A stretch of 64,000 bases of DNA from a plasmid. Positions 30,159 to 53,003 of the stretch are shown here, in pieces. Both the position numbers and the translations under genes were made by a program. The stretch lies in sequence record NZ_CP054002.1; one strand, 5' to 3'. The notes below the pieces were generated by a model. It saw only the letters and a program-made list of their open reading frames with translations. It was not told the origin of the DNA and did no database searches. The number at the start of each line of letters is the position of its first letter. The first letter of the stretch is position 1.

Positions 30159-30485
30159 ATGGCAATGGAAAAGACACAGCGAAAACAGTCCCTAAACTGC
30201 TTGTCAAACACTCCTAAGCTGTTTGACCTAAACGAACTACTAAGCTCGCTCAAGATCACACCCGGACAAATGGAGAACATGAAAGGGTTGATATACATCG
30301 AAGGGCTGACGGAAAAGCAAGTACGCCAAAGATTAAGCCATGCAAAGATCATCAGAACAAATAAATTCGGGGTTAATTCCTGCCTGTATTATATCCTCTT
30401 TGAGGATGTAAAGGGGAGATATTTGTGCCTGTTTAACGGTGACAGGGAATGTTTCAGAGCGTTGTTTTTCAGTATTCACCTGTAA
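30159..30485 (+). CDS. 108-aa hypothetical ORF in the ermF upstream region; may be a remnant
   Basis: ORF track only; a terminator-like hairpin plus T7 run (30088..30125) lies just upstream. Confidence 0.25.
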   Translation: MAMEKTQRKQSLNCLSNTPKLFDLNELLSSLKITPGQMENMKGLIYIEGLTEKQVRQRLSHAKIIRTNKFGVNSCLYYILFEDVKGRYLCLFNGDRECFRALFFSIHL

Positions 30486-30495
30486 GAAGTTACTA

Positions 30496-31296
30496 ATGAC
30501 AAAAAAGAAATTGCCCGTTCGTTTTACGGGTCAGCACTTTACTATTGATAAAGTGCTAATAAAAGATGCAATAAGACAAGCAAATATAAGTAATCAGGAT
30601 ACGGTTTTAGATATTGGGGCAGGCAAGGGGTTTCTTACTGTTCATTTATTAAAAATCGCCAACAATGTTGTTGCTATTGAAAACGACACAGCTTTGGTTG
30701 AACATTTACGAAAATTATTTTCTGATGCCCGAAATGTTCAAGTTGTCGGTTGTGATTTTAGGAATTTTGCAGTTCCGAAATTTCCTTTCAAAGTGGTGTC
30801 AAATATTCCTTATGGCATTACTTCCGATATTTTCAAAATCCTGATGTTTGAGAGTCTTGGAAATTTTCTGGGAGGTTCCATTGTCCTTCAATTAGAACCT
30901 ACACAAAAGTTATTTTCGAGGAAGCTTTACAATCCATATACCGTTTTCTATCATACTTTTTTTGATTTGAAACTTGTCTATGAGGTAGGTCCTGAAAGTT
31001 TCTTGCCACCGCCAACTGTCAAATCAGCCCTGTTAAACATTAAAAGAAAACACTTATTTTTTGATTTTAAGTTTAAAGCCAAATACTTAGCATTTATTTC
31101 CTGTCTGTTAGAGAAACCTGATTTATCTGTAAAAACAGCTTTAAAGTCGATTTTCAGGAAAAGTCAGGTCAGGTCAATTTCGGAAAAATTCGGTTTAAAC
31201 CTTAATGCTCAAATTGTTTGTTTGTCTCCAAGTCAATGGTTAAACTGTTTTTTGGAAATGCTGGAAGTTGTCCCTGAAAAATTTCATCCTTCGTAG
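30496..31296 (+). CDS. ermF: 23S rRNA (adenine-N6) methyltransferase ErmF (MLSB resistance), 266 aa
   Basis: Protein from MTKKKLPVRFTGQHFTIDKVLIKD... matches ErmF as recalled; SAM-binding LDIGAGKG; the track start at 30439 is an in-frame upstream Met. Confidence 0.9.
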   Translation: MTKKKLPVRFTGQHFTIDKVLIKDAIRQANISNQDTVLDIGAGKGFLTVHLLKIANNVVAIENDTALVEHLRKLFSDARNVQVVGCDFRNFAVPKFPFKVVSNIPYGITSDIFKILMFESLGNFLGGSIVLQLEPTQKLFSRKLYNPYTVFYHTFFDLKLVYEVGPESFLPPPTVKSALLNIKRKHLFFDFKFKAKYLAFISCLLEKPDLSVKTALKSIFRKSQVRSISEKFGLNLNAQIVCLSPSQWLNCFLEMLEVVPEKFHPS

Positions 31297-31508
31297 TTCA
31301 AAGTCGGGTGGTTGTCAAGATGATTTTTTTGGTTTGGTGTCGTCTTTTTTTAAGCTGCCGCATAACGGCTGGCAAATTGGCGATGGAGCCGACTTTTAGC
31401 ACAAATGTTGAATAGAATTACTAATCTTCAACATTGCACAAAAGTTCAATAGAAGTACTTCACCGGCTCTATTGCCAATTTGTTTGTTATGTGCCGTTTT
31501 ATTCCATT

Positions 31509-32675
<1,167 letters not shown>

Positions 32676-33456
32676 TCAAAAATGGCCCATAACAATGGCT
32701 CGGCGAATTGGCGAAGTAGCGAAGCTGTATCGAAGATACAAAAGCGGAGCTATTTAGCCAAGTCGCTTGTTGTAAGCAGTCCGCGAAGCGGCGGCTTACG
32801 GCAAGCGACGTAAGTCGCCGAGCCATTGTTAGCAAGGAGCGCAGCGGATTGCTAACAACGGTTTGCAGCTATACGCAGGCAGGGATTTTTACCACTAAGC
32901 TACCTACGATGAACTGAACTTTAAATTTACCACTTTCCTGTCTTACGAAGCACGAACCCCCTGCTTGCGTATAGGTGATGTTATGCGGTCGGCTTTCATT
33001 TTCTCTTCTTTCTCGTTAATTTGTCAAGCAAAGTTACTAAATTTGCAGTCAAGCAATTTCAATTTTTGAATTATGTATTTCAGCAGACCTTGGACTTCTA
33101 TCTAAGTGATAGGCAGTCCTGAATAAATTCCAATCAATCTTTTAGGGCAAGACAATCAGTCTATGCTTTGTGTGTGCTGTCATTTTTTTTGATGGCATTG
33201 CTTTGTCGTAGTTGCTCTGTCGGGTAATACTGTCTATTCACTTCTCTGTGATTTGAATTCAAGGTATTACTAAATTAACCCCCTATAAGATAGAATTGTA
33301 AAGTTCTTTTCATCCGCAAAATGGAATGAATAGAACGTAATATTCATATTGTTAAAATCTATTAACGGGGGGGGGTAAATTCTAATTTGTATTTCTACAT
33401 GCTTTGAATAATAAAATATATACATATTTTTGAACCATTAAAATATAAACTTTATC

Positions 33457-34039: not shown

Positions 34040-34084
34040 GCCTCCGGCGGGGTTTTCGCCGGGGGGCTTCTTGCATTTGCATAT
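34040..34084 (+). repeat. 45-bp direct repeat, copy 1 (GCCTCCGGCGGGGTTTTCGCCGGGGGGCTTCTTGCATTTGCATAT)
   Basis: Identical copy at 35384..35428; contains a GC hairpin CCGGCG-N7-CGCCGG. Confidence 0.75.
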
Positions 34085-34360
34085 ATAACCTCAAAGGCAA
34101 GTCAAATCGGACGGGGTGGCGGTCGGACGGCTGAAAAGTCGAAAACGTAACACAGGCGTGTTACTACTTGTCTTTGACAAGGCATTTTTTAGGGGTGCTG
34201 GCATACAATCCGAAAGGGGCGGGAACGGCTGTTCCCGTTTGTTCTCCCTGCAACCTACAGGATATTAACCTTAAATCATTAAGTGATAAACACTATATTT
34301 AATAACCCCTTTTAGCCAACAAATTGTTATCTTTGCGTAGGGTAAACAAAAAATAAGCTT

Positions 34361-34804
34361 ATGAAAACTGCTATGGAAAAAAAAGAAACCGGCTTAATGA
34401 GACAGATCGGTTATCTCTCTTTTGTCGTTGTTTTGTTGTATGGGCTTACGCTATTTGCGGTTTCTTGTGACAATGATGAAGATCCTCCTCTTCCTCCCGC
34501 AGTGGAAAAAGTAGTGCTGGCATTTGGTGTGGATCAGGGTGAAGGTCAGCTTTCGGCTAAACCGGAGTTGGAAAATACGGCTGCGGAAAAGATAGGAGAA
34601 TTGATCTCTCCGGCTGAAATAGCGAAAGGCACAACGGTGCATTTTCGTGCTACCCATTCCAAATCATGGACAATCATGTATTGGAAAGTCAATGGCGTCA
34701 TTATTCGTTCTGTGGAGCCGGAGCAGACTTTCGTCATCGATGAGCATAAGGAGGTTCGGGTTGCTTTCAAGCCTTACAAGTCACCGGAACCGGAGGGGCT
34801 GTAA
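34361..34804 (+). CDS. lipoprotein (147 aa)
   Basis: TM or signal segment plus Cys (FAVSCDNDED). Confidence 0.45.
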   Translation: MKTAMEKKETGLMRQIGYLSFVVVLLYGLTLFAVSCDNDEDPPLPPAVEKVVLAFGVDQGEGQLSAKPELENTAAEKIGELISPAEIAKGTTVHFRATHSKSWTIMYWKVNGVIIRSVEPEQTFVIDEHKEVRVAFKPYKSPEPEGL

Positions 34805-34886: not shown

Positions 34887-35192
34887 TTATTTCAGGACTT
34901 CGCCCTTCTCGTTGAAGAACACTTCGCTGTCCGTGCCTTCTGCATCGGTAAATGTCACCTTGTAGGTCTTTGTGCCTTCCTCGCTTTCCTCAACTGCGGC
35001 TTCCTTGATTGTCAGGTCTGCGAAATCCTTCTTGATCGTGTCCTGAACCGCCTGCGGCAGATCCTTTACCTCGATTGGCTTATAATCGTTCACCATTACC
35101 ACAATCTCAACATCCGATACCATGTTGCCGGCGAATGCCACTGAACTACCCAATCCCATAACAAGTGCTACTGCAAATAATACCTTTTTCAT
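34887..35192 (-). CDS. secreted small protein, PepSY-like fold candidate (101 aa)
   Basis: Signal peptide MKKVLFAVALVMGLGSSVAFA; short beta-rich body. Confidence 0.45.
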   Translation of the reverse strand: MKKVLFAVALVMGLGSSVAFAGNMVSDVEIVVMVNDYKPIEVKDLPQAVQDTIKKDFADLTIKEAAVEESEEGTKTYKVTFTDAEGTDSEVFFNEKGEVLK

Positions 35193-35383: not shown

Positions 35384-35428
35384 GCCTCCGGCGGGGTTTT
35401 CGCCGGGGGGCTTCTTGCATTTGCATAT
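35384..35428 (+). repeat. 45-bp direct repeat, copy 2
   Basis: Identical to 34040..34084. Confidence 0.75.
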
Positions 35429-35842
35429 CTATCAAAAAGAAAGCAATATCGGAGCGTTACACCATAAAAACAGCTAGCCGGTTATTACAAAATGATATTG
35501 CCACAGTTGAGCATAAGGACAGGTCCAGCTATAAAATGGAGTAGGAGAGTAGCAAAATGATATTTATGTTTTAGGCGTTCCCTTCGGTCAGGCTTTCCGC
35601 TTCTACATGGTAAACGCTTCAATCCTTAACGCATAATGCCCACCCACCCGAATAAGGTAGGCTATTTTCCGATTGATCGGTTCGGTGAGCCATCCGGTAA
35701 ACCGAATGACTTTCACCGATCCGAACAGTCGGAAAAGGAGTACCCGGAATAAACCTTTCCGGCTGATAGGTGCAAGCACTTACCAGCTGGAAAGATATAT
35801 TCCTGCATGGGTACTCCGGTAGCCGGTTGTTTGATCCCGTTA

Positions 35843-36766
35843 TTATACTTTCGGAAAAAATCTGTGTTTAGATACTTTTTCTGTGTTTAATCCTAGTTCT
35901 TTGCTATCGCTTTGGGCTAGTTTGATGTTGCTTAATCCGGGAGCATCAGAGGGCAGACCGAAGATCTTCTGGACTGCTATCATCGTTGGAGCCGGTGCGG
36001 ATCCTTTCAGGTTGTTTATCGCTTCCGGAGAAGGGATATATCCTTCATCCTTTAGGAAAGAGATCTGTGCAAAGTCATTTTTTTTTATGGCAAGAAAAAA
36101 GTCTTTTTCTTTTAGATATTGATCTACCATTTCTTTTAAATCATCTTTTACTAATGACCAGTAGTTACCCTTGAAGCAATCTATTCCTTCAGGTGATTCT
36201 TTTACAGAATCTATTTTTTGAAACCCATTTAATATACCTTCCTCTGTAACACTCCATTCGTTCCTTTTTATTCCCCAGTCGATCATATCTTTGAATGAAT
36301 ATTTTTCATTTAGTTCGTGGATATCCCAAAAGTCTTTTTGTCTTGGTTCTTCTTCTGTAATGGCAGATAGTTTCATGGCTGCTATTTCCCGTATGTCTGC
36401 TATTCGTATGTGGTCGATTTCTTGTATGGGGAAAATAAATTTTTCAGTATAGAAAAAATCGACTTTAATTTTGTCTATAGGGGAGTCCCCCATGTATAGT
36501 GTATATCCTAAAGCTGATGTGTCCAGAGAATCTGTATTCTCGGAATATGGAAAACTCCTTTGAATAAACTCTTTCATTTCTTTTGTATTCATGGTTCCAT
36601 AATCTATATCAGTGAATAAATCTATGTCAATAGATCTTCGATGTCCTAGTTGTAGGCTCAAACAGGTTCCACCTATAAGCGTGAAATCTTTAAAAATAGG
36701 ACTATTGACCAGCTTTTGCAGAGTTTCTTTTAATAAAGGAGAAACAGTTTCATAATGTAAGTTCAT
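35843..36766 (-). CDS. AbiEii/DUF1814-type nucleotidyltransferase fused to the shared C-terminal module (307 aa)
   Basis: NTase motifs LIGGTCLSLQLGHRRSIDIDLF; C-terminal ...KKNDFAQISFLKDEGYIPSPEAINNLKGSAPAPTMIAVQKIFGLPSDAPGLSNIKLAQ... Confidence 0.65.
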   Translation of the reverse strand: MNLHYETVSPLLKETLQKLVNSPIFKDFTLIGGTCLSLQLGHRRSIDIDLFTDIDYGTMNTKEMKEFIQRSFPYSENTDSLDTSALGYTLYMGDSPIDKIKVDFFYTEKFIFPIQEIDHIRIADIREIAAMKLSAITEEEPRQKDFWDIHELNEKYSFKDMIDWGIKRNEWSVTEEGILNGFQKIDSVKESPEGIDCFKGNYWSLVKDDLKEMVDQYLKEKDFFLAIKKNDFAQISFLKDEGYIPSPEAINNLKGSAPAPTMIAVQKIFGLPSDAPGLSNIKLAQSDSKELGLNTEKVSKHRFFPKV

Positions 36767-37311
36767 AGAATGTATTTTTGATAGTTATCGTTTCTTGTGT
36801 TACTATTCCATTTGTTTTTTATGTTGGGAATGACTTGTTTTATGGTTTCTATTCCATAGAACCGAATAATCTCCTTGATCTCGATATCGTTGCCATATTC
36901 AAAAGCCCGTTGTATAACCCATTCCTTGTTCCTTATCCAATTTATCTTATCTATTCGTGTGTCCCAAAATAATCCTTTACTTAGTTTAGATAAGTCAGGA
37001 TGTTTCTTTCGCTCTTCTTTCATTATGAAGGTATATATGTCATGGTTGGCTTGTATTTTAAAGAAAAAGCCTTCAATGTTTATGTTTAACGCTTTTTCTA
37101 TTGAAATGGAGGCTTTTATAGTGAATTTTCGTTCCCCTTTTATATAGTCACAAATACGTTGCGGATATTCATTTGACATATGCGCTAACTTTTTTTGAGA
37201 TATATTCCTTTTTTTAAGGATTACATCCAATATCTTACCTGCCGGAACATCTTCCATTGACAAGTATTTTTCATATTTTATATTCATAGGACTATAATTT
37301 TGTTTTGGCAA
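36763..37311 (-). CDS. HTH (XRE-like) protein, putative cognate antitoxin or regulator of the downstream NTase (182 aa)
   Basis: HTH ...ISQKKLAHMSNEYPQRICDYI...; 4-bp overlap with the NTase gene. Confidence 0.5.
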   Translation of the reverse strand: MPKQNYSPMNIKYEKYLSMEDVPAGKILDVILKKRNISQKKLAHMSNEYPQRICDYIKGERKFTIKASISIEKALNINIEGFFFKIQANHDIYTFIMKEERKKHPDLSKLSKGLFWDTRIDKINWIRNKEWVIQRAFEYGNDIEIKEIIRFYGIETIKQVIPNIKNKWNSNTRNDNYQKYIL

Positions 37312-37365
37312 AAATAATGACTCTTAATACAATAACCAAATTTGGTTATTGTTATTTTGGAAAAA

Positions 37366-38643
37366 TTATAATGCCTGCTCAATATTTTTCCCGATTGTTT
37401 GCCTATCATTTTGGGCTAGCTTTATGTCGCTTAGTCCGGGAGTATCAGAGAGCAGACCGAAGATCTTCTGGACTGCTATCATCGTTGGAGCCGGTGCGGA
37501 TCCTTTCAGTTCGTCTATTATTTTAGGGGAAGGGATATACCCTTCATCCTTCAGCCCGGCGATCCGGGTAAAATCGTTTTTTTTTATGGCATCTTGGAAC
37601 TCACATTCCTTGCCTTTTGATATGGATGCTTGTAGATCATCGTTCCAATCACTGTTTACCGATAACTCCACGTTAGGCAGTTGAAGAACTTTATCCTTCA
37701 GTTCTTCAACTGGCAGACCTTCAATATTGGGTAACTCTTGACCTTTTAAGAATGTATCTAGCTTCAGCGCATATTTATAGCCGTTGCTATCATTGTCAAA
37801 TATATAAGTAACCTGATCGGTTATATTATTAATATTTTGCTTTGACAGGAGCAGCTTTATAACGCCCATTTGTCCCTGTGTGATGTTCCCTTCAGTGCTG
37901 ATATATAAGATGTTCTTTTCGGTATTCAGAAGCTTCATTTGATAATGGGACGCAGCATCGATCATGCTTTCACTGATATATATATGCTCTATTGGTCTTG
38001 TCTTGTCATGCTTAGACACTACGATACTATCGTATTTGTTGCCTGATATGCCTTTGAAGCTCTTGCCGTCTTCAGGTCTTATCCCCCTTTGGGAAATACC
38101 CTGAAAGCCGTTTTGGTTAATAAGTCTGGTACAGGTATTATTATAGACTTTTCCATCTTTCCGGTGTTCCCTAGAGGTGAATACCCCGGAAAATACCGGT
38201 GAAGATAGTGTATCTTGAGTAATTCCTCTCTTTTGCAAGAAATCCCCTTGATAGGGTTTCAGTTGGCTGTTCAGGAACGCCAGCTGATTAGGATCTAGTT
38301 TTGCGTTGCTAACTCCAAACCGGCTATCTTGAGATAATACGACTTCTTTATTGTTTACATAGTTCTGAACGGCTTCCCCGGCTTCTCGCAGGCTAGGCAT
38401 TCTCCCGGTCTGGTCGTAGATATGCTTCTGCATTAGATCTATGATAGTCTTTCCTCGTGCTTCTCCGTGAACGTCCCAATAGGTATAGTAATCCTTACTA
38501 TTCTTCTTGATAATAACGGTATCGGATCCGTTGCTCATCTTAGGGGACGAGTTGGAAGATCCGGAAACAAACTTCCAGCCTAAATAGAGAAAAAACTCCG
38601 GAAGGGAAACATCCCTTTTCAGTTTGTCAAAGTCTACTTTCAT
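37366..38643 (-). CDS. Toprim-domain protein (primase/topoisomerase-like) fused to the shared C-terminal module (425 aa)
   Basis: Toprim-like acidic motifs (YISESMIDAAS ... IFDNDSNGYKYA); C-terminal ...KKNDFTRIAGLKDEGYIPSPKIIDELKGSAPAPTMIAVQKIFGLLSDTPGLSDIKLAQ. Confidence 0.6.
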   Translation of the reverse strand: MKVDFDKLKRDVSLPEFFLYLGWKFVSGSSNSSPKMSNGSDTVIIKKNSKDYYTYWDVHGEARGKTIIDLMQKHIYDQTGRMPSLREAGEAVQNYVNNKEVVLSQDSRFGVSNAKLDPNQLAFLNSQLKPYQGDFLQKRGITQDTLSSPVFSGVFTSREHRKDGKVYNNTCTRLINQNGFQGISQRGIRPEDGKSFKGISGNKYDSIVVSKHDKTRPIEHIYISESMIDAASHYQMKLLNTEKNILYISTEGNITQGQMGVIKLLLSKQNINNITDQVTYIFDNDSNGYKYALKLDTFLKGQELPNIEGLPVEELKDKVLQLPNVELSVNSDWNDDLQASISKGKECEFQDAIKKNDFTRIAGLKDEGYIPSPKIIDELKGSAPAPTMIAVQKIFGLLSDTPGLSDIKLAQNDRQTIGKNIEQAL

Positions 38644-38647
38644 AACG

Positions 38648-39865
38648 TCAGATTTTTAGGTTATTACTTTTATCTTTACCTAGCCCTACATTATCGCTTT
38701 GGGCTAGTTTGATGTTGCTTAATCCGGGAGCGTCAGAGGACAGACCGAAGATCTTCTGGACTGCTATCATTGTTGGAGCCGGTGCGGATTTTTTCAGCTC
38801 GTCTATTATTTTAGGGGAAGGGATATACCCTTCATCCTTCAGCCCGGCGATCCGGGTAAAATCGTTTTTTTTTATTGAATCTGAAAAAATAGAATCGGTT
38901 ATTTGTTGCTGTGTTCTTATGATGATAGGATGATCCTGTATGTTATTCAGGATCTCCTTATCAGAAAACAAAAGATCCGGCTTATATTTCCCAGCGTAGA
39001 AGTTTGACAGGTACAGTTCCTCTGAAGGCTCTAATTTCATTAGCGAAGATACGAAATCAGCCACCTTATCGTTGATCTCCTGCATGGGATATTTTCCGCT
39101 GTTGGTATGCATCATCGGAAGTAGCTGCTGCCTTATCTCCGTAAAGGTCACATTCTCTATGCTTTGTTTTGGATCAGCCTTTAACATTTCCTTATTCTCC
39201 GGATTGCCAAGAGAAGAGTAAAAAACAATGGATTTCCTTAAAAGATCCCTTTCTTCTTTGCTCGTCAATATATCAGAGGATGCAAGGGAGAAGAGGTCAT
39301 ATATATCTCTAGGCTTACATCTTTCATAGAACGCCTTTATCTTTCCTGCAAACAATTCGATAGGATTGACGTAGTTTACTACAAATGAAGTCTTGTTCTC
39401 TCTGATGAAGGGAAACTCAATAGATTTAACTTCCGGTTTGAATATATGGGATCGATTATGATAGTTTATATCTAGTTTTATCTTATCTCCGCTTCCTGTC
39501 ACCGTATTATAGTGCAAAGAGAGAGAATCTAGGGTAAAATTACTTCTTTCGGTCTTCCTATACCCGTTCTGCTGGAAATAGCTATCTAAAGCCTTGTTGA
39601 TTTGTTCTCTCTCCGCTAACATATCCTCTTTAGATACGTTTTTAGAGAAATCAAGATCCAGATCGACAGAAAGCCGGGGAAGATCGAAAACAAGCAGGTT
39701 TATAGCCGTTCCCCCCTTCAGTAACAATTTACCGCTAAACTCCGGCTGATTGTTAAGGTCATTGAGGATATTGGATAATCGCATAACTTTCTCTATTCCA
39801 GCAACCGTAAAATTATTTTCTTTTGCTAGTCTAGTGATTTCTTCTTGTGTATAATCAAAACTCAT
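38648..39865 (-). CDS. AbiEii-type nucleotidyltransferase toxin-like protein fused to the shared C-terminal module (405 aa)
   Basis: LKGGTAINLL...RLSVDLDLDF NTase signature; same C-terminal module. Confidence 0.65.
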   Translation of the reverse strand: MSFDYTQEEITRLAKENNFTVAGIEKVMRLSNILNDLNNQPEFSGKLLLKGGTAINLLVFDLPRLSVDLDLDFSKNVSKEDMLAEREQINKALDSYFQQNGYRKTERSNFTLDSLSLHYNTVTGSGDKIKLDINYHNRSHIFKPEVKSIEFPFIRENKTSFVVNYVNPIELFAGKIKAFYERCKPRDIYDLFSLASSDILTSKEERDLLRKSIVFYSSLGNPENKEMLKADPKQSIENVTFTEIRQQLLPMMHTNSGKYPMQEINDKVADFVSSLMKLEPSEELYLSNFYAGKYKPDLLFSDKEILNNIQDHPIIIRTQQQITDSIFSDSIKKNDFTRIAGLKDEGYIPSPKIIDELKKSAPAPTMIAVQKIFGLSSDAPGLSNIKLAQSDNVGLGKDKSNNLKI

Positions 39866-40604
39866 AATATACTCCTTTCTCTATTTCTTTCATTACATCT
39901 TTAGGCGCACATACATTCCATTCCTTGAAATAGGTATCACAACGGGAAGGATTTGTAAGGTAACTTGTTGTATTACCCATCTTCTTTTTACATACATCGA
40001 AGAACATATCCGATAGGTTTAGTTGTTCCTGAAGCTGGGACAGGATGAATCCTGTACGTTGATACAGGCTTTTCTTTTGGTATAGCTTCAGGCATTCTAA
40101 CATATCTTCTTCTATTACGGAATCCGGATCAACCTCGATTAAGGCAAATAACAGTTCTTCAATGCCACCGGCTAAGCCTATATTGTTTAAGCAGTCAATT
40201 ATGGTTTGGCTGATTGATGTAACCGTGATAGGATAGCCGGTATCTTTTTTTGTAACCAATGGTTTGTATATAAACTGCAAAGGCTTATATACATAACGCT
40301 GGTTCAGGTACTCAAAAGACCGGAAGGGAGTAGAACTGTGCACATAAAGCCAGTTAAATTCCTGTGTCTGTAACATATAGAACTCTAATGCAGAATGATA
40401 AGCTAGGCAACCATTATCAACGGAATTGCAAGCTATCTGATACTTGTTCTGTATGTTAGCCGGCAAATATACTCCCCGGCGAATATGTGATAACAAACCT
40501 CGCTTTTTCCAGTTGTAAAGACGGGATTTCATGGTGTTATATCCTACTGGTTGATCTATGCTTATCATGCCTGTTTCTTTATATTTAGATATTATATTAC
40601 TCAT
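39855..40604 (-). CDS. AbiEi-like antitoxin/transcriptional regulator (249 aa)
   Basis: Directly upstream of the NTase gene and overlapping it by 11 bp, as in abiEi-abiEii operons. Confidence 0.5.
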   Translation of the reverse strand: MSNIISKYKETGMISIDQPVGYNTMKSRLYNWKKRGLLSHIRRGVYLPANIQNKYQIACNSVDNGCLAYHSALEFYMLQTQEFNWLYVHSSTPFRSFEYLNQRYVYKPLQFIYKPLVTKKDTGYPITVTSISQTIIDCLNNIGLAGGIEELLFALIEVDPDSVIEEDMLECLKLYQKKSLYQRTGFILSQLQEQLNLSDMFFDVCKKKMGNTTSYLTNPSRCDTYFKEWNVCAPKDVMKEIEKGVYYEF

Positions 40605-40740: not shown

Positions 40741-41340
40741 TTATCTTTTTCTGCCCTGTATGTTAATCCCTTCTATCCTTAGATACTTGTATAGGGTAGC
40801 TCTGGAAACTCCTACTATCCGGCAAACATCATCTATCGTGCCTATTTCATTTTGTAGATACTTGGTGTATTCTATAGCCGCTAGTTTAGCTTTCCTTTTA
40901 GCTTGATCTGTTAGACCGGGCTTGCGTCCTCCTATTCGTCCTTTTGCCTTTGCTGAAGTCAAACCGGCTATTGTACGCTCGGAAATTATATTTCGCTCCA
41001 TTTCTGCAATACAGCATAAAAGATGAAACGCAAACTTTCCGATTGGTGTTGATGTATTTAATTGCTCTGTTAGACTAATTAGAGCAATGTTTTTCTTTTC
41101 AAGAGCTTCTTGAAGTTTTATAAGTTCGCAGGTTCTTCTTCCTAATCGGTCTAGTTTCCACACGATAAGCTGATCTCCTGTTTTTAATTTTGCAATTAAA
41201 GCATCTAAAACAGGCTTATTTTTATTCTTTCCAGATATTTTTTCTTCACAGATGTGATCCACTCCGTATAAACGTAATGCGTCCAGTTGGAGATTTAAGC
41301 ATTGATCCGGAGTTGATACACGTGCATAACCATATTTCAT
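40741..41340 (-). CDS. second serine recombinase (resolvase/invertase family, 199 aa), distinct from the 195-aa copy
   Basis: GYARVSTPDQ catalytic motif; C-terminal HTH (VSRATLYKYL); start ~75 bp from the T-module IR at 41415. Confidence 0.85.
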   Translation of the reverse strand: MKYGYARVSTPDQCLNLQLDALRLYGVDHICEEKISGKNKNKPVLDALIAKLKTGDQLIVWKLDRLGRRTCELIKLQEALEKKNIALISLTEQLNTSTPIGKFAFHLLCCIAEMERNIISERTIAGLTSAKAKGRIGGRKPGLTDQAKRKAKLAAIEYTKYLQNEIGTIDDVCRIVGVSRATLYKYLRIEGINIQGRKR

Positions 41341-41414
41341 AATTTTTACGGCAAAAGTAGCACGTACATAGCCTTTGAAAAATATAGAGAAGGTGATTTT
41401 TGAATTTATTAAAA

Positions 41415-41435
41415 CGAACCTTTTTTTAAACTGAA
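41415..41435. repeat. 21-bp terminal IR of tra module copy B (end adjoining unique DNA next to recombinase 2)
   Basis: CGAACCTTTTTTTAAACTGAA, identical to 3594..3614. Confidence 0.85.
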
Positions 41436-41449
41436 GTTTTTTTCCTTTT

Positions 41450-41941
41450 TCAAGATCTATTTGCTACTTCAAAAATTCCGCTTTCTTTCCTTGCAATTTT
41501 GACTCTATCACGCAAAGTATCTATAATAGGAATATTCCGATCAATCCCATACATATATAAAATAGGATCGGAAGCATCACCTGATATAACTTTCACTGTC
41601 TTGTTGCCAAATACTAATTGCAAGAAATTTTGTTTTTCTGAATAATCAATCACTCTATATAATTCTAAATGTTCCTCTCGTCTTGAGATTATACCATGCC
41701 TGAAAATCAGTTCATCCTTAGTAATAATCCACTTTGTAGCAAACAGCGTGTCTATATATGTGTAACACAACATAATCCAAACGACTAAAAACAGCACCAT
41801 TAACGCATAGTGTACAGGCATTTCTAAATCCCAATAAATAGCAGAGAACGGGAGTAAAGATGCGACAACAATTATCACAAAATACTTTGAAACCCAATAA
41901 CCTAGTTTGGGCTTCAATGTTATAGCCGTTTGGTTATCCAT
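41450..41941 (-). CDS. PH-like-domain membrane protein (copy B)
   Basis: Identical to 20049..20540. Confidence 0.45.
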   Translation of the reverse strand: MDNQTAITLKPKLGYWVSKYFVIIVVASLLPFSAIYWDLEMPVHYALMVLFLVVWIMLCYTYIDTLFATKWIITKDELIFRHGIISRREEHLELYRVIDYSEKQNFLQLVFGNKTVKVISGDASDPILYMYGIDRNIPIIDTLRDRVKIARKESGIFEVANRS

Positions 41942-41944
41942 AAT

Positions 41945-42472
41945 CTAGTTCTTTATATTAGTATATTGTATAGACTTTGTATTATTCTCTGAATCCGGAA
42001 CGGAAACTGTATTTTGATAGACCTCTTTTCCATCCTGATACACTGTCATTTTCAATATAGCACCGGACTTACTTTTGCTAAGAATAATCCCTTGAGCAGA
42101 AATAACCTTCACTTCTTTAGAGGTTATATAAACTTTCCGTCCGCTAAAATACTCCGTTACAGAACTTTGTTTTAGGTCTGTGTTACTTGTTTCATCTATA
42201 ATTGATACGTTATCCGGATTAATAATAATAGCTTCAGCTGTATAATCATCCCCTGAAGCCTCTAATACTACCTTATATACAGCAGATGTATTATTAAAAA
42301 CAGGATCATCATCCGATCCACCACAAGAAACTAATACTAGAGTAGCACATAACGCAAACAAATGCAGCTTAATTTTTTTCATCATCTTTATATATTTTAA
42401 ATTCAGATCCATGTGTATGTAAAGTAAACAAACCCTTATATTTTTCTTTCTAGAAATTTTCTCTGCTATCAA
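41945..42472 (-). CDS. lipoprotein (copy B)
   Basis: Identical to 19518..20045. Confidence 0.5.
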   Translation of the reverse strand: MIAEKISRKKNIRVCLLYIHMDLNLKYIKMMKKIKLHLFALCATLVLVSCGGSDDDPVFNNTSAVYKVVLEASGDDYTAEAIIINPDNVSIIDETSNTDLKQSSVTEYFSGRKVYITSKEVKVISAQGIILSKSKSGAILKMTVYQDGKEVYQNTVSVPDSENNTKSIQYTNIKN

Positions 42473-42589
42473 AAATAGCTATTGCCGTTGCCATCAATAA
42501 ACCCAAATTGATCTGTTTCTACAATAAACAAATCGCTCGTTTCTGATAACTTGCTAAAATCTTTAAAAAACTGAACCTTCATATTTTTC

Positions 42590-43069
42590 TTATTTAGTCG
42601 TAGCTTTCATCCTTCCCCAGCACGTTTTCATATCGGGAGCGAGTAAAAACTCGCCAACTCTCTCCTGCCTAGCCTTTAAACTAGGTGGAACAATTGCATA
42701 CTTGCATTTCAATAGTTTGGCTAACACCTCCGTACTATCTCTATCCTTATACTCCATTTTCTTTTTCTCTATCCATTTTAAATTATCTTTAGCCTTGGTG
42801 TAATCAGAGAAAAGCGGTTTTACCAAAGCACGAGGATTCTCCGCTCTTTCTATCATCTGTACCTGTTGAGCAGCTTTACTATCCAAATACAATAAGCTGT
42901 CGGAAACTGTAACATCTTTTTCGTCAAGCAACTCTATCAATTCAAACTTAAGATCAGTCCAAGTACCGTTTTCATCGGTTTGAAGCCAATCCGCTATTGC
43001 CTTTTCATATTCAGTTGATCCACACGAAGATAAGGCAAATAATAAAACTATCAATATCCTACTTTTCAT
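42590..43069 (-). CDS. lipoprotein (copy B)
   Basis: Identical to 18921..19400. Confidence 0.5.
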   Translation of the reverse strand: MKSRILIVLLFALSSCGSTEYEKAIADWLQTDENGTWTDLKFELIELLDEKDVTVSDSLLYLDSKAAQQVQMIERAENPRALVKPLFSDYTKAKDNLKWIEKKKMEYKDRDSTEVLAKLLKCKYAIVPPSLKARQERVGEFLLAPDMKTCWGRMKATTK

Positions 43070-43106
43070 ATATTATTTTTTTTATATTTTCACAAAAATA
43101 CCTCTT

Positions 43107-45062
43107 TTATTCCTTCCATGCCTTATGATTATGATCTTTCGGCATGTTTTTTTCCTTATTTTTATTGTCCGTTTCTGTCTTATTCTTTACATCTTCCAAG
43201 ATCGCATTTACTTTTGAAATGATTGAAAGATAATGTTGACTAACTATTTCTTCCATTATATCATACTCTAATTCTTCTTTGCCATCTCCCAAATTTACAG
43301 GTTTGGAAAAAGCCGGAATATCCTTATCTATAAACTTACACATATTAAATTGTGTATTAAAATAAGGTGGTTTTCCGCCAGCGACCTTTCCGATGAAGTG
43401 ACCAACACTTTGTCCGGCAACTTCACGAGCCTTTACTACTTTCTCCTTTTGCAGAGATTCGGTCATGCTTCCAGTACCGGATTCTTGATGTGAGAACGAT
43501 TCCTGTGCTTCTTTCGTTTCTCCCAAAAGATTTTCTAGATCCTTTGCTGTCTTTTCGTTACCGGTCATTCCATAGGCTTGGCTACCACAAGAAGATCGCA
43601 GGATATTTGCACTTTTCTCTCCATAATCCCGGATTGCTTGATTAAAGTCCTGTACGGCTAAGATTGTAGCTACATTGTGTTTACGTGCTGTACCTATAAA
43701 TACATCTATACCTTGCAAATTTACCGTTGGAAATTCATCCACCATAAAAACGCTCTTTTGTTTGCCGGGATTATTCATTTGCGACATGACAACGCTAGCG
43801 ATACAACTAACAGGAGGAGATACAGCTTCTTTAATTGAAGGAGCATTGCCTATACACAATAGTGTAGGATGATCCGGATTAGTTATATCTAGTGAATATT
43901 CTTCTTCCGGAAGTGGTGATAGAACCCAAAAGATGTATTTATTGTTAAGCAAAACAAGCGGAGTCTGTGCGGAAGATACCGCACCAGCGGTCTGCTGCTG
44001 TGCGCCTAAACGCCATGCGGTTAACATGGAAGACATGTTTAGCGCAATTTCCGCATCCTCAGAGAGCCATTTAAAGACCAGATCACTATCTGATAATGCA
44101 AAAGCGATTACATGGGGTAAAGTTCCTATTCCCTTTGCTCGTTCTTTGTAACATTTATAAGCAATTGAATATACATAGTTAATCGCATTGTTCGCCCAGA
44201 AATCAGTTTTTTCCTTCCATGAACTTTCAAGGTTTTTCATTAAGGTAGTAGCGATATTACGAATAAACAAGGATTCGCTTCCTTTAGGGACATATTTTTC
44301 CGAAAGTACATTAACACGAACCGTCCGGGACATGTCTACAAAATTTATGAAAGCAAAGGCTGGTGTAGGTACATTTTTTCTCTTAAAATATTCTATACTA
44401 CCGTATGCGATCCGGGACAAAATAGGTGAACCCGGTTTACTAGGATCTCCTTCCCAATCATATACAAATCCGGCATAGTTACGCTCTGCACATTGATAGA
44501 TGATGCCTTTAATCCAGCTTTCCGATTTTCCAGATCCCGGACCACCGTCAATATAAAGATTTTGCTGTGGCTTATGGATTCTAAGATTTCCTTCTACTGT
44601 TTCAAAATCAAAATAAAACTCTGATTTTTCATGTGATACACCAAAGATAGATTTATCAGATACCACATGCCGTTTAAGGTAAAAACCGGCTGTTTGGATA
44701 ACTAGTATTGTAAATCCTATAAATACTATCGGAAAAACTAATAAATTGTACCATGATAGAACATTACTGAAGCCTAATATTAGGGCTATTGCTAAGATTA
44801 ATGTAGTGGCAGTATATACATATTTCAAGGATTCATCTCTTCTCTTTTGTACAGGGAATAGGAAAGCCAACCCAGCTAATAATACTACATATAGGAATCG
44901 AAACATAATAGCTTTGCGTAAAAACTTTCCCAACTGCAATAATACAGCTGGGCTTGGTGAACAAAGATCATTCACCAAAACCCACTGAAAGATTATCACA
45001 CCCCCGATTATTACGGAAAGCAATATAAAGACAAATGATAATTCCTTCTTTGCTGGTTCCAT
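43107..45062 (-). CDS. type IV coupling protein (copy B)
   Basis: Identical to 16928..18883. Confidence 0.8.
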   Translation of the reverse strand: MEPAKKELSFVFILLSVIIGGVIIFQWVLVNDLCSPSPAVLLQLGKFLRKAIMFRFLYVVLLAGLAFLFPVQKRRDESLKYVYTATTLILAIALILGFSNVLSWYNLLVFPIVFIGFTILVIQTAGFYLKRHVVSDKSIFGVSHEKSEFYFDFETVEGNLRIHKPQQNLYIDGGPGSGKSESWIKGIIYQCAERNYAGFVYDWEGDPSKPGSPILSRIAYGSIEYFKRKNVPTPAFAFINFVDMSRTVRVNVLSEKYVPKGSESLFIRNIATTLMKNLESSWKEKTDFWANNAINYVYSIAYKCYKERAKGIGTLPHVIAFALSDSDLVFKWLSEDAEIALNMSSMLTAWRLGAQQQTAGAVSSAQTPLVLLNNKYIFWVLSPLPEEEYSLDITNPDHPTLLCIGNAPSIKEAVSPPVSCIASVVMSQMNNPGKQKSVFMVDEFPTVNLQGIDVFIGTARKHNVATILAVQDFNQAIRDYGEKSANILRSSCGSQAYGMTGNEKTAKDLENLLGETKEAQESFSHQESGTGSMTESLQKEKVVKAREVAGQSVGHFIGKVAGGKPPYFNTQFNMCKFIDKDIPAFSKPVNLGDGKEELEYDIMEEIVSQHYLSIISKVNAILEDVKNKTETDNKNKEKNMPKDHNHKAWKE

Positions 45063-45358
45063 TATTCTTTATTCTTGCTAGAGAGTAATTGAACCTTATC
45101 TACACTCATAGTTACTGAAGGGACTGTATCACCAGTATCACGCTTAAAGATACCGACAGTGATTTCCCCATACACATGAACCATAGTTCCTGTTTTTAAA
45201 AACTCCGCAACCTTTGTTTCGTAATTTAAGAAACAACAGATCCACAACGTTTTTTCTTCGTTTCCCTCTTTATATTTAGTGGAAACATTGAATGAATAAC
45301 CTTTCTGTGTTTTCTTGGCATCTGATCCAAGATAACCCGTAACATGACCTATAAACAT
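45062..45358 (-). CDS. ssb: SSB-like protein (copy B)
   Basis: Identical to 16632..16928. Confidence 0.5.
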   Translation of the reverse strand: MFIGHVTGYLGSDAKKTQKGYSFNVSTKYKEGNEEKTLWICCFLNYETKVAEFLKTGTMVHVYGEITVGIFKRDTGDTVPSVTMSVDKVQLLSSKNKE

Positions 45359-45361
45359 ACG

Positions 45362-46672
45362 CTAAAAATTTAAAGATAATTGTTTGACTTCATTTTTATT
45401 TTTTGATTCGGAAAATTGTAGGGAAGGAGTAGGATCATCCAACTTTATATTAAATATATTCTGTGCGGCAATATATATTTTCGGATCTGCATCCTTTAAC
45501 GCATCAAGTTCCTTTGCAGACAGTTTATATCCCTGCTCCTTTAGGTTAACCAATTCCTTAAACGAACCGGCTAGCGCAGCAGCTAGAGCTATATTAAAAG
45601 CTGGTGATAATTTTTCATCATTCCGGGTTTCAGAAAAATCCTTGCTATCATCTACTTTTTTATTCTCTATATGCTTGCATTCTTCCTGTTGCTTTTCCTG
45701 TTCTTCCTTCTTCAATAACTCATACTTGCAGACTTCATTCAAAATCATAGTGCTAGCCTTACCTACATCAACTAATACGGAATAGAGGAATTTAGGTTCT
45801 TTTTTGATCGCTCCGAGCCAGTTTTTTAAATACTGTGCGTTTTCTTCCCGGACTCCGGAAACGATACCTAGAGAACGGCAAGAAACAGCAGCGGTAAATT
45901 CTGCGATTAATTCTTCTTTTGCATATTTGGGATCACCAAACATGTTTTTCATTTCACGTCCTAAACGGGTATCTATACCGGTTGAATGTGCCATCTCATG
46001 TAACAATGTGCTATAAAATCCTTCTCCTGTATAGAATTGACCTTTAAGGGGTAAATATATCTTGTCCTCTGAAGGACGAAAAAAAGCCTTGTCAGAGAAA
46101 GAAGAAATAATAGGACATAACCATGTACCGTGTTTTATCATGTGATCCAACTCTGGCGATGAAAACATTCCCTGCTCATCTTTCAATTTAGGACAACTAA
46201 ATTTATCCTTCAATGCCTTCCATTGTTCCGGATATACTTCCGCAAAGTTTGTTTGATCAACATTGAACACGTGATAAGGTTTAGTATAAGGAATAACGGT
46301 ATATTCTTTCTGCTCTTCCTTAGTCAAAGCCTTATAATCATCCATCGAAATTTTATTCCCCTTATCGTCTTTAATCATAAAATTCCAAAATAGGACAGGA
46401 AAAGCCGATGCTCCTTTGTTTATGTGAAGCCCTTGTTTCTTTGCTTGCGGAAAAGTCATATATACAGGTGTCTGGAAACTACGTTCCTCTTGAAGAAGAA
46501 AAAGCATGAAGGAATTGATTCCATTATAAACACGCCCATCAATATTTTGTGGTAATCCATATCCTGTTGTTGTAAACCAAGGTTTATGCCAATCCGCATC
46601 GACTTCCGTAAGTTTCTTAACCATAAGATCCGCAAATTTTTGCAGAGCCTTATCATTTGCCTGACCATCCAT
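45362..46672 (-). CDS. ardC: ArdC-like antirestriction protein with the shared C-terminal module (copy B)
   Basis: Identical to 15318..16628. Confidence 0.8.
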   Translation of the reverse strand: MDGQANDKALQKFADLMVKKLTEVDADWHKPWFTTTGYGLPQNIDGRVYNGINSFMLFLLQEERSFQTPVYMTFPQAKKQGLHINKGASAFPVLFWNFMIKDDKGNKISMDDYKALTKEEQKEYTVIPYTKPYHVFNVDQTNFAEVYPEQWKALKDKFSCPKLKDEQGMFSSPELDHMIKHGTWLCPIISSFSDKAFFRPSEDKIYLPLKGQFYTGEGFYSTLLHEMAHSTGIDTRLGREMKNMFGDPKYAKEELIAEFTAAVSCRSLGIVSGVREENAQYLKNWLGAIKKEPKFLYSVLVDVGKASTMILNEVCKYELLKKEEQEKQQEECKHIENKKVDDSKDFSETRNDEKLSPAFNIALAAALAGSFKELVNLKEQGYKLSAKELDALKDADPKIYIAAQNIFNIKLDDPTPSLQFSESKNKNEVKQLSLNF

Positions 46673-46675
46673 GAC

Positions 46676-46864
46676 TTATTGATAAAGGTGTTCATTTTCA
46701 TATTTTAGCAACCATTCAGCAGCGTTTTCCGCATTCGGGCTAACTCCTTCAGCTTGCATATCCGCAACGTAGAGAGCCGCTAAATCTTCTTGAGCTAATA
46801 AAAATTCAAGATCGTCAATCTCTCCAGTCTGATTCTTTTCTACCAATTTGTTGTAATCTTCCAT
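46676..46864 (-). CDS. 62-aa hypothetical (copy B)
   Basis: Identical to 15126..15314. Confidence 0.4.
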   Translation of the reverse strand: MEDYNKLVEKNQTGEIDDLEFLLAQEDLAALYVADMQAEGVSPNAENAAEWLLKYENEHLYQ

Positions 46865-46914
46865 GATATTTATTTTTAAGTGATAACATTTTTACTTTCG
46901 GAAAAATCTATTAA

Positions 46915-48726
46915 TTATAAATCGGCAAACATTTTATTTACCGTATTGGCGAGAGGACGCTTTAGATCTTTTTCTGCACTTTGTTGACCTTGTGCTAGCT
47001 TAACATCTCCGAGCGTATTAGCAGAGCCTTTCAGATTAAATATCTTCTGAACGGCTATCATCGTATTGCCAGATGCAGTTTCATTCAAAGACTGAATCAA
47101 CTCTTTGGAAGGTTGATAGCCTTGTTCCTTCAGTTGTGACATCTTTACAAAATCGCCTTTCTCTACTGCTTCTTTAAATTCTTTATCTAGTTCCGGAGAA
47201 ACCTTAGCACTAGCAGGATCAGCATTAAGCTCTACCTTTGCTTCTTTGGATTCTTCCTTTGCTTGTGTTACTTCTTCCGCTTTTTGCACTTCAGGTTTCA
47301 TCCCAAATAGTTTTTCTATAACGATAGCTTGCGTCTGATCAATCTTTGTATCTTGTCCCAAACCTCTAATAACTTCCTCTGAAGGCTTGTAACCTTCCTC
47401 TTTCAAACTAGCTATTTTTTCATAGTCATTCTTGACAACGGCTTCTCTTAACTCCTTGTCAAGATCTCGATCAGGAACAGGATCCTTACCCGTTACTTTC
47501 TCCTGATATTGTTCCCGGATCTTCTCGACTTTAAAGCCTTCTTCTTTCAATTCCTTTTCAGTTGTACCTTTGGCGATTATTCCTTCTTTTTCTAACATAT
47601 CCCCAGCCTTTAACCTAATGCGTGCTTCAAGATCATAATTATAGTTTTTATCCGGATTTTCATCTTTCAGATAAGATAGGTATTCCTTATGTTCTGTGGC
47701 AAAATGGCTGTTTATTAATTGCTCATACCTTTTATCCTTCAACTCGTCTATATCGATTTTTCCGGTACGCTGCATATCCTTTAGCTTATCATTAAGATAC
47801 TCTTTATCCTTTGCCATTTCTCTTGCCTGTAAAATCTGCTGTGCCTTTGTTTCCGATATTTTCTGGATGTTTGAGAAAGCATATCCTTTCTTATCCGGAA
47901 GCATAGCTATATCTGTAATTATGTAACCTTCAGGAGTGTGGATCATTTTGTTATCTAAAGAATGACCATTCGCTAAAAGATACTTATCTGCTGCGGTCAA
48001 TTCGTAATCTCCAATTTTAGCAGGAACAGACAATTCTTTTTCCGAACGTACCACCACAGCGTTGAGATCCTTATCGACCTGAAGAAGTATATCTCCTTTT
48101 TTTGTTGACAAGACTATCACATTGCCATCAAGTAGATCTTGCTTCTGTTGCTTCGATAATTTCTTTCCGTAAATGCGATCCGGTATGGTTAACGCTTCCT
48201 TCCTATATATAATAGAAGTACCGTGTTCATGCAACCGAACTTTAGCTGGTTTACCATTGATATCCATTAATCCGGATAATACACCCTTCTCTAACTTTGT
48301 GCCTTTCCCGTCTAACGAGTAACCATTTTGCAAAGCATACTCATATAGTTCTTTTCCGGTATAACAGATTTTATTTTTATGATCGATCACAGTAAAACGA
48401 TCTTTGGCATCATTTTTTAGATCACCCCAGTTAACAATATCAACCCCTTCATTTTTTAATACGCTTTTATAGTCGGGAGATAAAGCCTGATCCCGATTAA
48501 AGAACTGGCAAACACGATCCATAGAAGCCTTTTCCGCAGATAAATCCGGTTCTCGCTTTGTGTGTGAACGTATCTTATCCATATCGATACGAAATACTTC
48601 GTCATTCCGGGTAAAAAGCAAAGAACCCTTGTTATAGGCTTCTTTGTAACCTAAACTTTCCGCAATCGCCCTAAATTGCCCGACATTATTATATTGATAT
48701 TCTGTTAGAACCTCTTGTAGCTTCAT
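46915..48726 (-). CDS. 603-aa protein with two copies of the shared module (copy B)
   Basis: Identical to 13264..15075. Confidence 0.7.
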   Translation of the reverse strand: MKLQEVLTEYQYNNVGQFRAIAESLGYKEAYNKGSLLFTRNDEVFRIDMDKIRSHTKREPDLSAEKASMDRVCQFFNRDQALSPDYKSVLKNEGVDIVNWGDLKNDAKDRFTVIDHKNKICYTGKELYEYALQNGYSLDGKGTKLEKGVLSGLMDINGKPAKVRLHEHGTSIIYRKEALTIPDRIYGKKLSKQQKQDLLDGNVIVLSTKKGDILLQVDKDLNAVVVRSEKELSVPAKIGDYELTAADKYLLANGHSLDNKMIHTPEGYIITDIAMLPDKKGYAFSNIQKISETKAQQILQAREMAKDKEYLNDKLKDMQRTGKIDIDELKDKRYEQLINSHFATEHKEYLSYLKDENPDKNYNYDLEARIRLKAGDMLEKEGIIAKGTTEKELKEEGFKVEKIREQYQEKVTGKDPVPDRDLDKELREAVVKNDYEKIASLKEEGYKPSEEVIRGLGQDTKIDQTQAIVIEKLFGMKPEVQKAEEVTQAKEESKEAKVELNADPASAKVSPELDKEFKEAVEKGDFVKMSQLKEQGYQPSKELIQSLNETASGNTMIAVQKIFNLKGSANTLGDVKLAQGQQSAEKDLKRPLANTVNKMFADL

Positions 48727-48731
48727 GACAA

Positions 48732-49862
48732 TTATTTTAATAATTCAGCGGACAATATATATTCATTCAATATAGATAATTTCATATGCCTTCCCCCACC
48801 TCTTTCAAACATTTCGATCTCAAAAACCTTATCATCCGGGATAGTGAACTTATTGAATGCTAGGACAAAGCGATTTTGGCTTTTGCCCAATATCTTTTTA
48901 TCAAAGTCTTTTTGTTCTACCGGATCATACGGAACTTCCTGCTGGATAGAGTTCTTAACCTTCTTCTGATCACGAAGGAAGCATTTAATAAAATCAACGT
49001 CATAATCTATATTTGAGAAGTTTTTTATATCAAATACAAAAAACATGAAATCATCTTTTACATATAGGTTTGCAAGGGACATCTCAAACTTATTTTTTAT
49101 AACTCCCAAGCTGAAGATATTACGCTTTTTATAGTGCAGTTTATTGATAAGATTATCCATCTCTATGCTATTTACATCAATGTGTGCAATATATTTGCGA
49201 CCATCGTCAAAGTTGTAAGAGTAAGTAAGAGCATGGTCTTTAAACAAGGTAATTTCATAGGTATTCAGATCTTTATCGATAACAAACAGATTAGAAGGTT
49301 CAAAGGCATCAAAAGTTGTACCAACTTTAACCATATTATTATAATACTCAACCCCGAAAACTTCTTCATTTCCTTGTTTCAGATATAACACATCTGCTGG
49401 AAAAAACATTTCTGTAGTATTGTTATTATTGACTATTACGTTATAACAACGTGATCTATCCACATCACCGGCATATACGATATTTCCGCAGTGATCCGTC
49501 ATTCCCGGTAACAGATAGGATATTTTATAAGAATAGACATTCCCGTTTGTACAAACTATGATAAGGTTTGTCGTTCCTGAAAAATCTTCTTCCTGTGCCG
49601 TTATGCGGACAACATTAGGAACATTATCCACCCGTTCCACTTTTACATAATCTTCACGACCATACGAAATGTCACTTACTTGTGCAGGAAGTACTATATG
49701 TTTCGTTTTATCAAACGAAACATAAATTGTTTGGGAGTCCAGTTCTTTTTTTTCCTGTGCAGAAATGGAGAATGGAACACAAAACATGATTAATATAAAA
49801 AGCAATGTTTTCATTTTACAAAACCAATAAAAATATTTATAATCCAAAGCAGAACGAAACAA
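48732..49862 (-). CDS. traN: TraN-like protein, intact (376 aa)
   Basis: Full-length version of the frameshifted copy-A gene. Confidence 0.6.
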   Translation of the reverse strand: MFRSALDYKYFYWFCKMKTLLFILIMFCVPFSISAQEKKELDSQTIYVSFDKTKHIVLPAQVSDISYGREDYVKVERVDNVPNVVRITAQEEDFSGTTNLIIVCTNGNVYSYKISYLLPGMTDHCGNIVYAGDVDRSRCYNVIVNNNNTTEMFFPADVLYLKQGNEEVFGVEYYNNMVKVGTTFDAFEPSNLFVIDKDLNTYEITLFKDHALTYSYNFDDGRKYIAHIDVNSIEMDNLINKLHYKKRNIFSLGVIKNKFEMSLANLYVKDDFMFFVFDIKNFSNIDYDVDFIKCFLRDQKKVKNSIQQEVPYDPVEQKDFDKKILGKSQNRFVLAFNKFTIPDDKVFEIEMFERGGGRHMKLSILNEYILSAELLK

Positions 49863-51299: not shown

Positions 51300-51306
51300 A
51301 GCTCCA

Positions 51307-51936: not shown

Positions 51937-51942
51937 ATTTAT

Positions 51943-52995: not shown

Positions 52996-53003
52996 AAGGC
53001 TAA

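Follow-up and report, generated by a model that had tools for sequence, protein, structure and literature searches.

We analysed the 64,000-nucleotide stretch of plasmid record NZ_CP054002.1 (hereafter the window), which represents a conjugative plasmid of gut Bacteroides (Rep3-like protein, ParA, MobC, relaxase, TraM/N/O, and a TraG-family coupling protein), and found that three genes of one minus-strand operon, here called A, B, and C, end in copies of a single direct repeat of 191 nt. These repeats encode one protein module of ~60 residues, which forms the C-terminal part of each product, and the copies very probably recombine with one another such that gene conversion homogenises them and unequal crossover deletes, adds, and re-orders the gene bodies that are joined to the same tag. 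From its genomic neighbourhood and its likeness to known secretion signals, we tentatively suggest that the module may tag proteins for recruitment to, or translocation by, the conjugative type IV secretion system (T4SS).

Three consecutive genes share a repeated 3' end

A repeat search of the window revealed one family with three copies, all on the minus strand (Table 1), each of which makes up the 3' end of a gene whose body is either an AbiEii-type nucleotidyltransferase (NTase; genes A and C) or a Toprim-domain protein (gene B). Near-identical 3' ends on three consecutive genes had been described in an earlier reading of the same DNA (the original prediction), and the repeat family bears this out with coordinates that shift by 2-35 nt; the degenerate 64-mer offered there matches the window exactly three times (35939, 37438, and 38726, each with 0-1 mismatch), with 0 matches expected in 100 shuffles. 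Alignment of the three copies showed that identity begins abruptly at the codons for A/S-IKKNDF and stops after KLAQxD, that a run of ~60 nt is identical in all of them, and that outside of this core neither the upstream bodies nor the last 10-18 codons align among the three genes. The N-terminal domains had been called NTase, Toprim, and NTase, which Pfam confirmed, and had also been called unrelated, which is true of the Toprim body relative to both others and fails for the two NTases, as these belong to the same Pfam family and share 28% identity over 131 residues. Across the 183-nt core, synonymous and non-synonymous codon differences number 9 and 12 between copies A and B, 8 and 10 between A and C, and 6 and 5 between B and C, so synonymous sites are far from saturation. 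The antisense open reading frames (ORFs) whose shared protein sequence had been pointed out are a trivial by-product of the repeat.

Module copies evolve in concert and recombine

To place the three copies in a comparative frame, we used 63 related loci from human-gut metagenomes together with the complete B. fragilis plasmids CP103200 and CP103219. Module cores within one plasmid were 79-93% identical in DNA (with two cores per locus in the divergent lineages L023, L025, and L026), whereas cores of different lineages were 56-71% identical, both for the same gene and generally, and orthologous Toprim bodies of different lineages were 74-77% identical, a pattern that indicates concerted evolution by gene conversion. 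A map of diagnostic sites further revealed mosaics, in which short patches of one copy's variants lie inside another copy, and placed the crossover points at different positions in different variants. The tails that follow KLAQxD track gene position, reading ...NIEQ(A/S)L on Toprim itself and ...KDKSNDL(K/N)I on the gene upstream of it, so conversion tracts are confined to the core.

Natural variants of the locus show how gene bodies are lost and re-ordered. The 1499-bp unit between copies A and B, which holds an antitoxin gene and the gene A body, is absent from both isolate plasmids and from L013, where an A-type tail closes the Toprim gene, and L009 has lost the Toprim body via a crossover between copies C and B; in all four cases the breakpoints fall inside the repeat. 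Other loci possess different arrangements upstream of the Toprim gene, with the antitoxin and an A-type NTase body that carries a C-type tail directly upstream in L023 and L031, and a third type of AbiEii, 38-39% identical to that of gene C, in L025 and L026. The order recombinase-AbiEi-AbiEii with module-Toprim is kept even in a distant locus (L081, with P0021; <50% identity). Short ORFs within the metagenome loci were frameshifted full genes and not orphan cassettes.

The original prediction had proposed recent gene conversion or cassette-like swapping of domains onto a fixed 3' tag, to which the stated counter-expectations were identity limited to conserved codons, as among ancient paralogs, or N-terminal domains that do not vary among related genomes. 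Neither expectation held, given the few synonymous differences, the long identical run, and the 28% identity of the NTase bodies on one side and the genes absent or re-ordered in related plasmids on the other, and the proposal is thereby supported. Ordinary homologous recombination suffices for the locus. What weighs against this account is that metagenome contigs, where repeats can assemble chimerically, supply much of the comparative evidence; the key recombination inferences rest on contigs that hold both copies and on the two isolate plasmids. Whatever the function of the module, the locus illustrates cleanly, in natural sequence, how a domain-coding repeat evolves in concert, and the repeat is at the same time a recombination substrate through which defence or addiction genes are gained, lost, and re-assorted on the plasmid.

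Two metagenome ORFs (P0016 and P0017) join unrelated sequence to the module tail, one of them with the N-terminus of a SusD-like lipoprotein and the other with the antisense 3' end of gene B folded back onto the sense strand. Both probably arose when the assembly formed chimeras or fold-backs at the repeat, and are not real fusions.

The module represents a family of C-terminal domains

Evaluating the module as a protein, we ran an exhaustive profile search of 1.84 billion representatives, which recovered 97 proteins at E≤1e-3 and revealed that the module is conserved as protein, to ~25-40% identity in ~100 clusters, where DNA similarity is gone. Scans with a hidden Markov model (HMM) of the module placed the end of the match ≤22 residues from the C-terminus in 94 of 103 proteins. 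The core of ~50 residues consists of four short helices with two weakly ankyrin-like hairpins, has a net charge of ~0 across the family, and contains the strongly conserved motifs LKxxGYxPS and IAVQKIFG. It is followed by a polar, disordered tail of ~25-35 residues (23-59 across the family) with 5% Gln, whose last residue is L, I, M, V, or F in 76% of cases family-wide.

N-terminal partners of the module were DUF3945 (17 proteins), ART-PolyVal (5), LPD23 (5), AbiEii (4), and DUF4116 (3), along with ArdcN plus MPTase-PolyVal, HipA_C, PBECR5, Toprim_2, and many unannotated bodies; one protein of 1631 residues (P0065) combines ART-PolyVal, PBECR5, and LPD23 with the module. The hosts are Bacteroides, Phocaeicola, Parabacteroides, and Tidjanibacter, and knowledge of the family comes essentially from metagenomes alone. 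Many Bacteroidales elements (L059 and L066-L077, at ~14500-17000 in locus coordinates) possess Toprim orthologues without the module, just downstream of the gene encoding their type IV coupling protein (T4CP), as stop-to-stop ORFs of 341-404 residues (mostly 349) that are 45-49% identical to the body of gene B, which implies that the module on gene B is a lineage-specific acquisition. In L083/L084, a 416-residue protein (10001-11251) with partial Radical_SAM and HipA_C matches plus the module adjoins a second HipA with its helix-turn-helix (HTH) partner on an integrase/MobC/relaxase mobilisable element, and looks like a chimeric gene.

The module is undescribed in any library or paper that we searched. 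It matched no family in Pfam (E up to 10) or NCBIfam, a narrow-pattern scan of genome contigs and a scan of viral contigs returned no relatives, Foldseek against the PDB gave nothing significant, and literature searches (DUF3945, Bacteroides T4SS translocation signals, and related terms) returned no description of it. Toprim_Crpt was tried as an identity for the module and rejected, as that match lies elsewhere in the protein and below the cutoff.

Conjugation context and a possible role in type IV secretion

On the window, more distant module copies lie in the conjugation region, with two in a DUF3945 protein (25-42% identical to the module of copy B) and one in an ArdC-like protein whose gene precedes that of the T4CP (Table 1). 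This arrangement is syntenic in 22/22 loci with enough flank, all of which have the order traN, DUF3945 gene (two modules), 0-2 tagged effectors, ArdC-like gene (module), and T4CP, such that the T4CP gene is always directly downstream of the tagged genes. The interposed effectors are DUF4116 proteins or an ART polyvalent protein of 743 or 1020 residues, and the next gene after the T4CP is often the Toprim orthologue without the module.

The partner-domain repertoire of the module has been assigned to proteins that T4SS elements transfer along with DNA (Iyer et al. 2017; PMC5512222), and in XVIPCD, a C-terminal domain that binds the coupling protein VirD4, the folded part and the disordered tail are both needed for translocation (PMC8740702). 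This repertoire, together with an XVIPCD-like layout beside a coupling-protein gene, leads us to favour the T4SS tag, if cautiously. The module would dock tagged proteins on the conjugative T4SS, probably on the coupling protein encoded by the neighbouring gene, and the tagged proteins would then enter the recipient along with the plasmid DNA.

Several observations weigh against such a tag. The link between module and coupling protein rests on gene adjacency and is thus guilt by association. The relaxase, which is the canonical T4SS substrate, had no module in the module HMM scan, and the module has no sequence or fold match to XVIPCD or to BID, the C-terminal signal domain of the Bartonella Bep effectors. 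DUF3945 proteins hold a second, internal module copy, which a purely C-terminal signal would not usually have; Beps with multiple BID domains exist. The HipA-like tagged protein resides on a mobilisable element where no T4SS lies within 10 kb, and to our knowledge the export of a toxin-antitoxin (TA) toxin that possesses a cognate antitoxin is not an established behaviour.

Two of these observations bear on the rival that we rank next, namely that the module serves protein-protein interaction or assembly in general, perhaps gathering enzymes on a scaffold such as the two-copy DUF3945 protein or, in a variant, directing them to a common hub protein, for instance a replisome or single-stranded DNA-binding protein (SSB-type) partner, on the donor or the recipient side. 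Weakly ankyrin-like helical hairpins are typical of binding modules, the strong conservation of LKxxGYxPS and IAVQKIFG is expected of an interface, and both the internal DUF3945 copy and the presence of the module on an element without its own T4SS would be accommodated. We nevertheless hold this to be somewhat unlikely, as a scaffold needs neither a strict place at the extreme C-terminus nor a disordered tail with a constrained end, would not require tight linkage to the coupling-protein gene, and leaves aside that the partner repertoire fits proteins thought to act in the recipient. The recombination account at the DNA level is unchanged under this alternative.

Much less probable is that the module binds nucleic acid and tethers enzymes to the transferred single strand as escort proteins that the secretion machine does not itself recognise: many partners do act on nucleic acids (Toprim, AbiEii NTase, ArdC-N, and PBECR) and a small helical bundle could be HTH-like, but the core is neutral in charge and gave no DNA-binding matches. 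That the 191 nt are primarily a DNA or RNA element, with protein conservation secondary, is extremely improbable, since the ~60-nt identical run, the structural variants that break inside the repeat, and a serine recombinase gene ~900 bp upstream of the operon, all of which might suggest a shufflon-like recombinase site or a structured or antisense RNA, are set against direct and not inverted copies, differing crossover positions, and protein conserved beyond any DNA similarity. Site-specific recombination at the repeat was rejected on those variable crossover points and on the site-specific junctions of the plasmid, which use a different 22-bp core (ACGAACCTTTTTTTAAACTGAA), and an RNA element was rejected because the whole window had no Rfam match and RNAalifold found no covariation among the three copies (covariation term +0.23).

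Returning to the T4SS tag, a bolder version would have the module be the long-missing translocation signal of Bacteroidota conjugation machines and define a conjugative effectorome, in which injected AbiEii and HipA enforce plasmid entry, retaliate, or antagonise; we consider this quite unlikely. If it were true, AbiEii and HipA toxins would reach recipients ahead of or with the DNA, a recipient that destroys the plasmid would make no antitoxin and be poisoned, and TA systems would serve entry enforcement or retaliation, or conjugation-mediated antagonism in the gut. Bacteroidales conjugation systems play a major part in gene flow within the human gut, and our literature searches returned no description of the proteins that they send or of how these are recognised. 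A compact, sequence-defined tag, which in these data marks ArdC-like, ADP-ribosyltransferase, nuclease, Toprim, DUF3945, and toxin proteins beside the coupling-protein gene, would let candidate transferred proteins be listed directly and would offer a handle for reporter fusions.

Operon genes and annotation

The tagged genes lie in a tight operon with the order AbiEi antitoxin, gene C, gene B, HTH_3/DUF6922 protein, and gene A (Table 1). Promoter and terminator scans gave only background levels. Gene C and the co-oriented AbiEi gene upstream are a canonical AbiE pair by sequence, with putative toxicity, neutralisation, and NTase activity, and the gene C match covers positions 2-305 of the 306 in the PADLOC AbiEii profile PDLC02305. 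For gene B, which may encode a primase or a nuclease, the Toprim_2 score is 26.8 bits against a cutoff of 22.1, and its translation shows the Toprim Glu in ISESMIDA and the DxD in FDNDSNG; no relative was found among PDB sequences. The HTH_3/DUF6922 protein is presumed to be the antitoxin or regulator of gene A, and its gene and the gene A body are gained or lost as a pair in natural variants. At the end of gene A, the window has an A5 run (35866-35875) where CP103200, L004, and L017 have A6, and the true stop is probably at ~35868-35870 with the C-terminus ...NTEKSI, such that the tail read from the window (...EKVSKHRFFPKV) is probably a frameshift artefact of this homopolymer run.

Table 1. 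Positions of the module copies, the genes that carry them, and their neighbours on the window.
Feature	Position	Strand	Evidence and remarks
DUF3945 protein	13264-15075	+	Pfam DUF3945, residues 174-206 only; identical gene inverted at 46915-48726
Two distant module copies near C-terminus of DUF3945 protein	14539-15000	+	Residues 432-496 and 523-585; E=8e-18 and 6e-29
ArdC-like protein (ArdcN + MPTase-PolyVal)	15318-16628	+	Pfam; duplicate at 45362-46672
Divergent module at C-terminus of ArdC-like protein	16407-16568	+	Module HMM E=2e-11
Type IV coupling protein (TraG/TraD family)	16928-18883	+	Pfam T4SS-DNA_transf, TraG-D_C, TrwB_AAD_bind; duplicate at 43107-45062
Gene A, short AbiEii-type NTase + C-terminal module	35843-36766	-	Pfam AbiEii E=2e-16, residues 16-157; weak PADLOC AbiEii matches
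Repeat copy A	35905-36095	-	Module core IKKNDF...KLAQSD of gene A; 83% identical to copy B; module HMM E=2e-24
HTH_3 + DUF6922 protein	36763-37311	-	Pfam DUF6922 E=3e-21, HTH_3 E=3e-6; overlaps gene A start by 4 nt
Gene B, Toprim-domain protein + C-terminal module	37366-38643	-	Pfam Toprim_2 E=7e-6, residues 222-303
Repeat copy B	37404-37594	-	Module core of Toprim gene B; family reference copy; module HMM E=2e-25
Gene C, predicted canonical AbiEii toxin (residues 4-321) + C-terminal module	38648-39865	-	PADLOC PDLC02305 E=2e-98; Pfam AbiEii PF08843 E=7e-26
Repeat copy C	38692-38882	-	Module core of gene C; 92% identical to copy B; module HMM E=3e-25
Predicted AbiEi antitoxin of gene C	39855-40604	-	PADLOC AbiEi E=1e-77; overlaps gene C by 11 nt

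Downstream of the operon, a GC-rich direct repeat of 48 nt (GCCTCCGGCGGGGTTTTCGCCGGGGGGCTTCTTGCATTTGCATAT...; 34040-34087 and 35384-35431, 98% identical) holds a hairpin and brackets two small genes (34361-34804 and 34887-35192). It may be a regulatory or terminator element.

Structure of the window assembly

The window amounts to ~1.7 copies of a 38-kb plasmid unit in the order rc(X)-A-X-U-rc(A)-X, such that a 17-kb tra segment (~3546-20596) recurs inverted at 41394-58447, and a 5.5-kb Rep/ParA segment (20555 to ~26100) has a further direct copy at 58379-63900 and an inverted one at 1-3580. The 22-bp core given above is present at each of the four junctions (~3590-3611, 20557-20578, 41397-41418, and 58380-58401), and small serine recombinase genes lie near junctions (40741-41340 and 23954-24541). 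In CP103200 the tra segment is present in one orientation only, and the duplicated arrangement could come from site-specific inversion, from plasmid multimer isomers, or from the assembly of mixed isomers. The two tra copies differ by 28 single-base homopolymer indels with no substitutions outside the junction, which implies that the window is a noisy long-read assembly with uncorrected consensus errors, and several tra ORFs are longer in one copy than in the other (e.g., TraN at 278 vs 376 residues). A 2.8-kb segment (30474-33261) with ORFs at 30439-31296 (+) and 31509-32675 (-) is absent from CP103200.

Comparison with known systems

One close likeness in layout is to XVIPCD of the X-Tfe T4SS effectors, which is likewise a C-terminal domain with a folded part and a disordered tail that is found on diverse N-terminal enzymatic domains (PMC8740702). 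The receptor of XVIPCD is the coupling protein, and here the module genes adjoin a T4CP gene, with binding and translocation by the module putative. The two differ in that XVIPCD has ~120 residues and a Gln-rich tail, whereas the module has a core of ~50 residues and a tail with 5% Gln and a hydrophobic end; XVIPCD serves bacteria-killing T4SSs in Proteobacteria, whereas the module is found in Bacteroidales conjugation systems, and no sequence or fold similarity between them was detectable. The BID domain of Bartonella Bep effectors and alpha-proteobacterial relaxases is also a helical C-terminal T4SS signal domain with a tail, derives from conjugation systems, and is joined to a variety of N-terminal effector domains, some proteins having several copies. 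In contrast to the module, BID is larger, carries positive charge in its tail, and occurs on relaxases; the relaxase here is without the module, and no homology was detected.

With regard to what is tagged, the set resembles the polyvalent proteins of T4SS elements (PMC5512222), sharing ART-PolyVal, LPD23, PBECR5, ArdC-N plus MPTase, Toprim, and Pol-beta-type NTase domains. A polyvalent protein, encoded by a phage or a conjugative element, unites several (2-15) conflict-related domains on a single chain (Iyer 2017), and some members of the module family, up to 1631 residues long and ending in the module, are true polyvalent proteins, with P0065 fitting that definition. The effectors on the window are unlike these, as genes A, B, and C each encode a separate protein with one effector domain and its own module instead of contributing to one giant polypeptide, and the module itself matched none of Pfam's polyvalent-protein domain (LPD) models.

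The original prediction had also likened the locus to polymorphic toxins, and part of this likeness stands, in that polymorphic toxin, contact-dependent inhibition (CDI), and Rhs loci likewise swap effectors by homologous recombination through a shared block with immunity or antitoxin genes that travel along. The analogy is loose because the constant part is C-terminal on the window and no dedicated diversification machinery is evident, whereas in polymorphic toxin, CDI, and Rhs loci a constant N-terminal part precedes a variable C-terminal toxin, and immunity genes and orphan cassettes follow downstream; on the window, antitoxins lie upstream and no orphan cassettes were seen. A shufflon or invertase system is likewise a poor fit given direct repeats, variable crossovers, and a different 22-mer at the junctions.

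As for the AbiE type IV TA and abortive infection systems, gene C and its AbiEi fit the canonical pair, and gene A encodes a shorter AbiEii that is paired with an HTH protein. A canonical AbiEii stops near residue 306-321, and in gene C a further domain of ~84 residues is appended. The kinds of feature seen here, C-terminal signal domains and recombination through a shared block, are themselves known, and the module would be a non-homologous variant of such tags in Bacteroidota conjugation systems, with TA toxins among its carriers.

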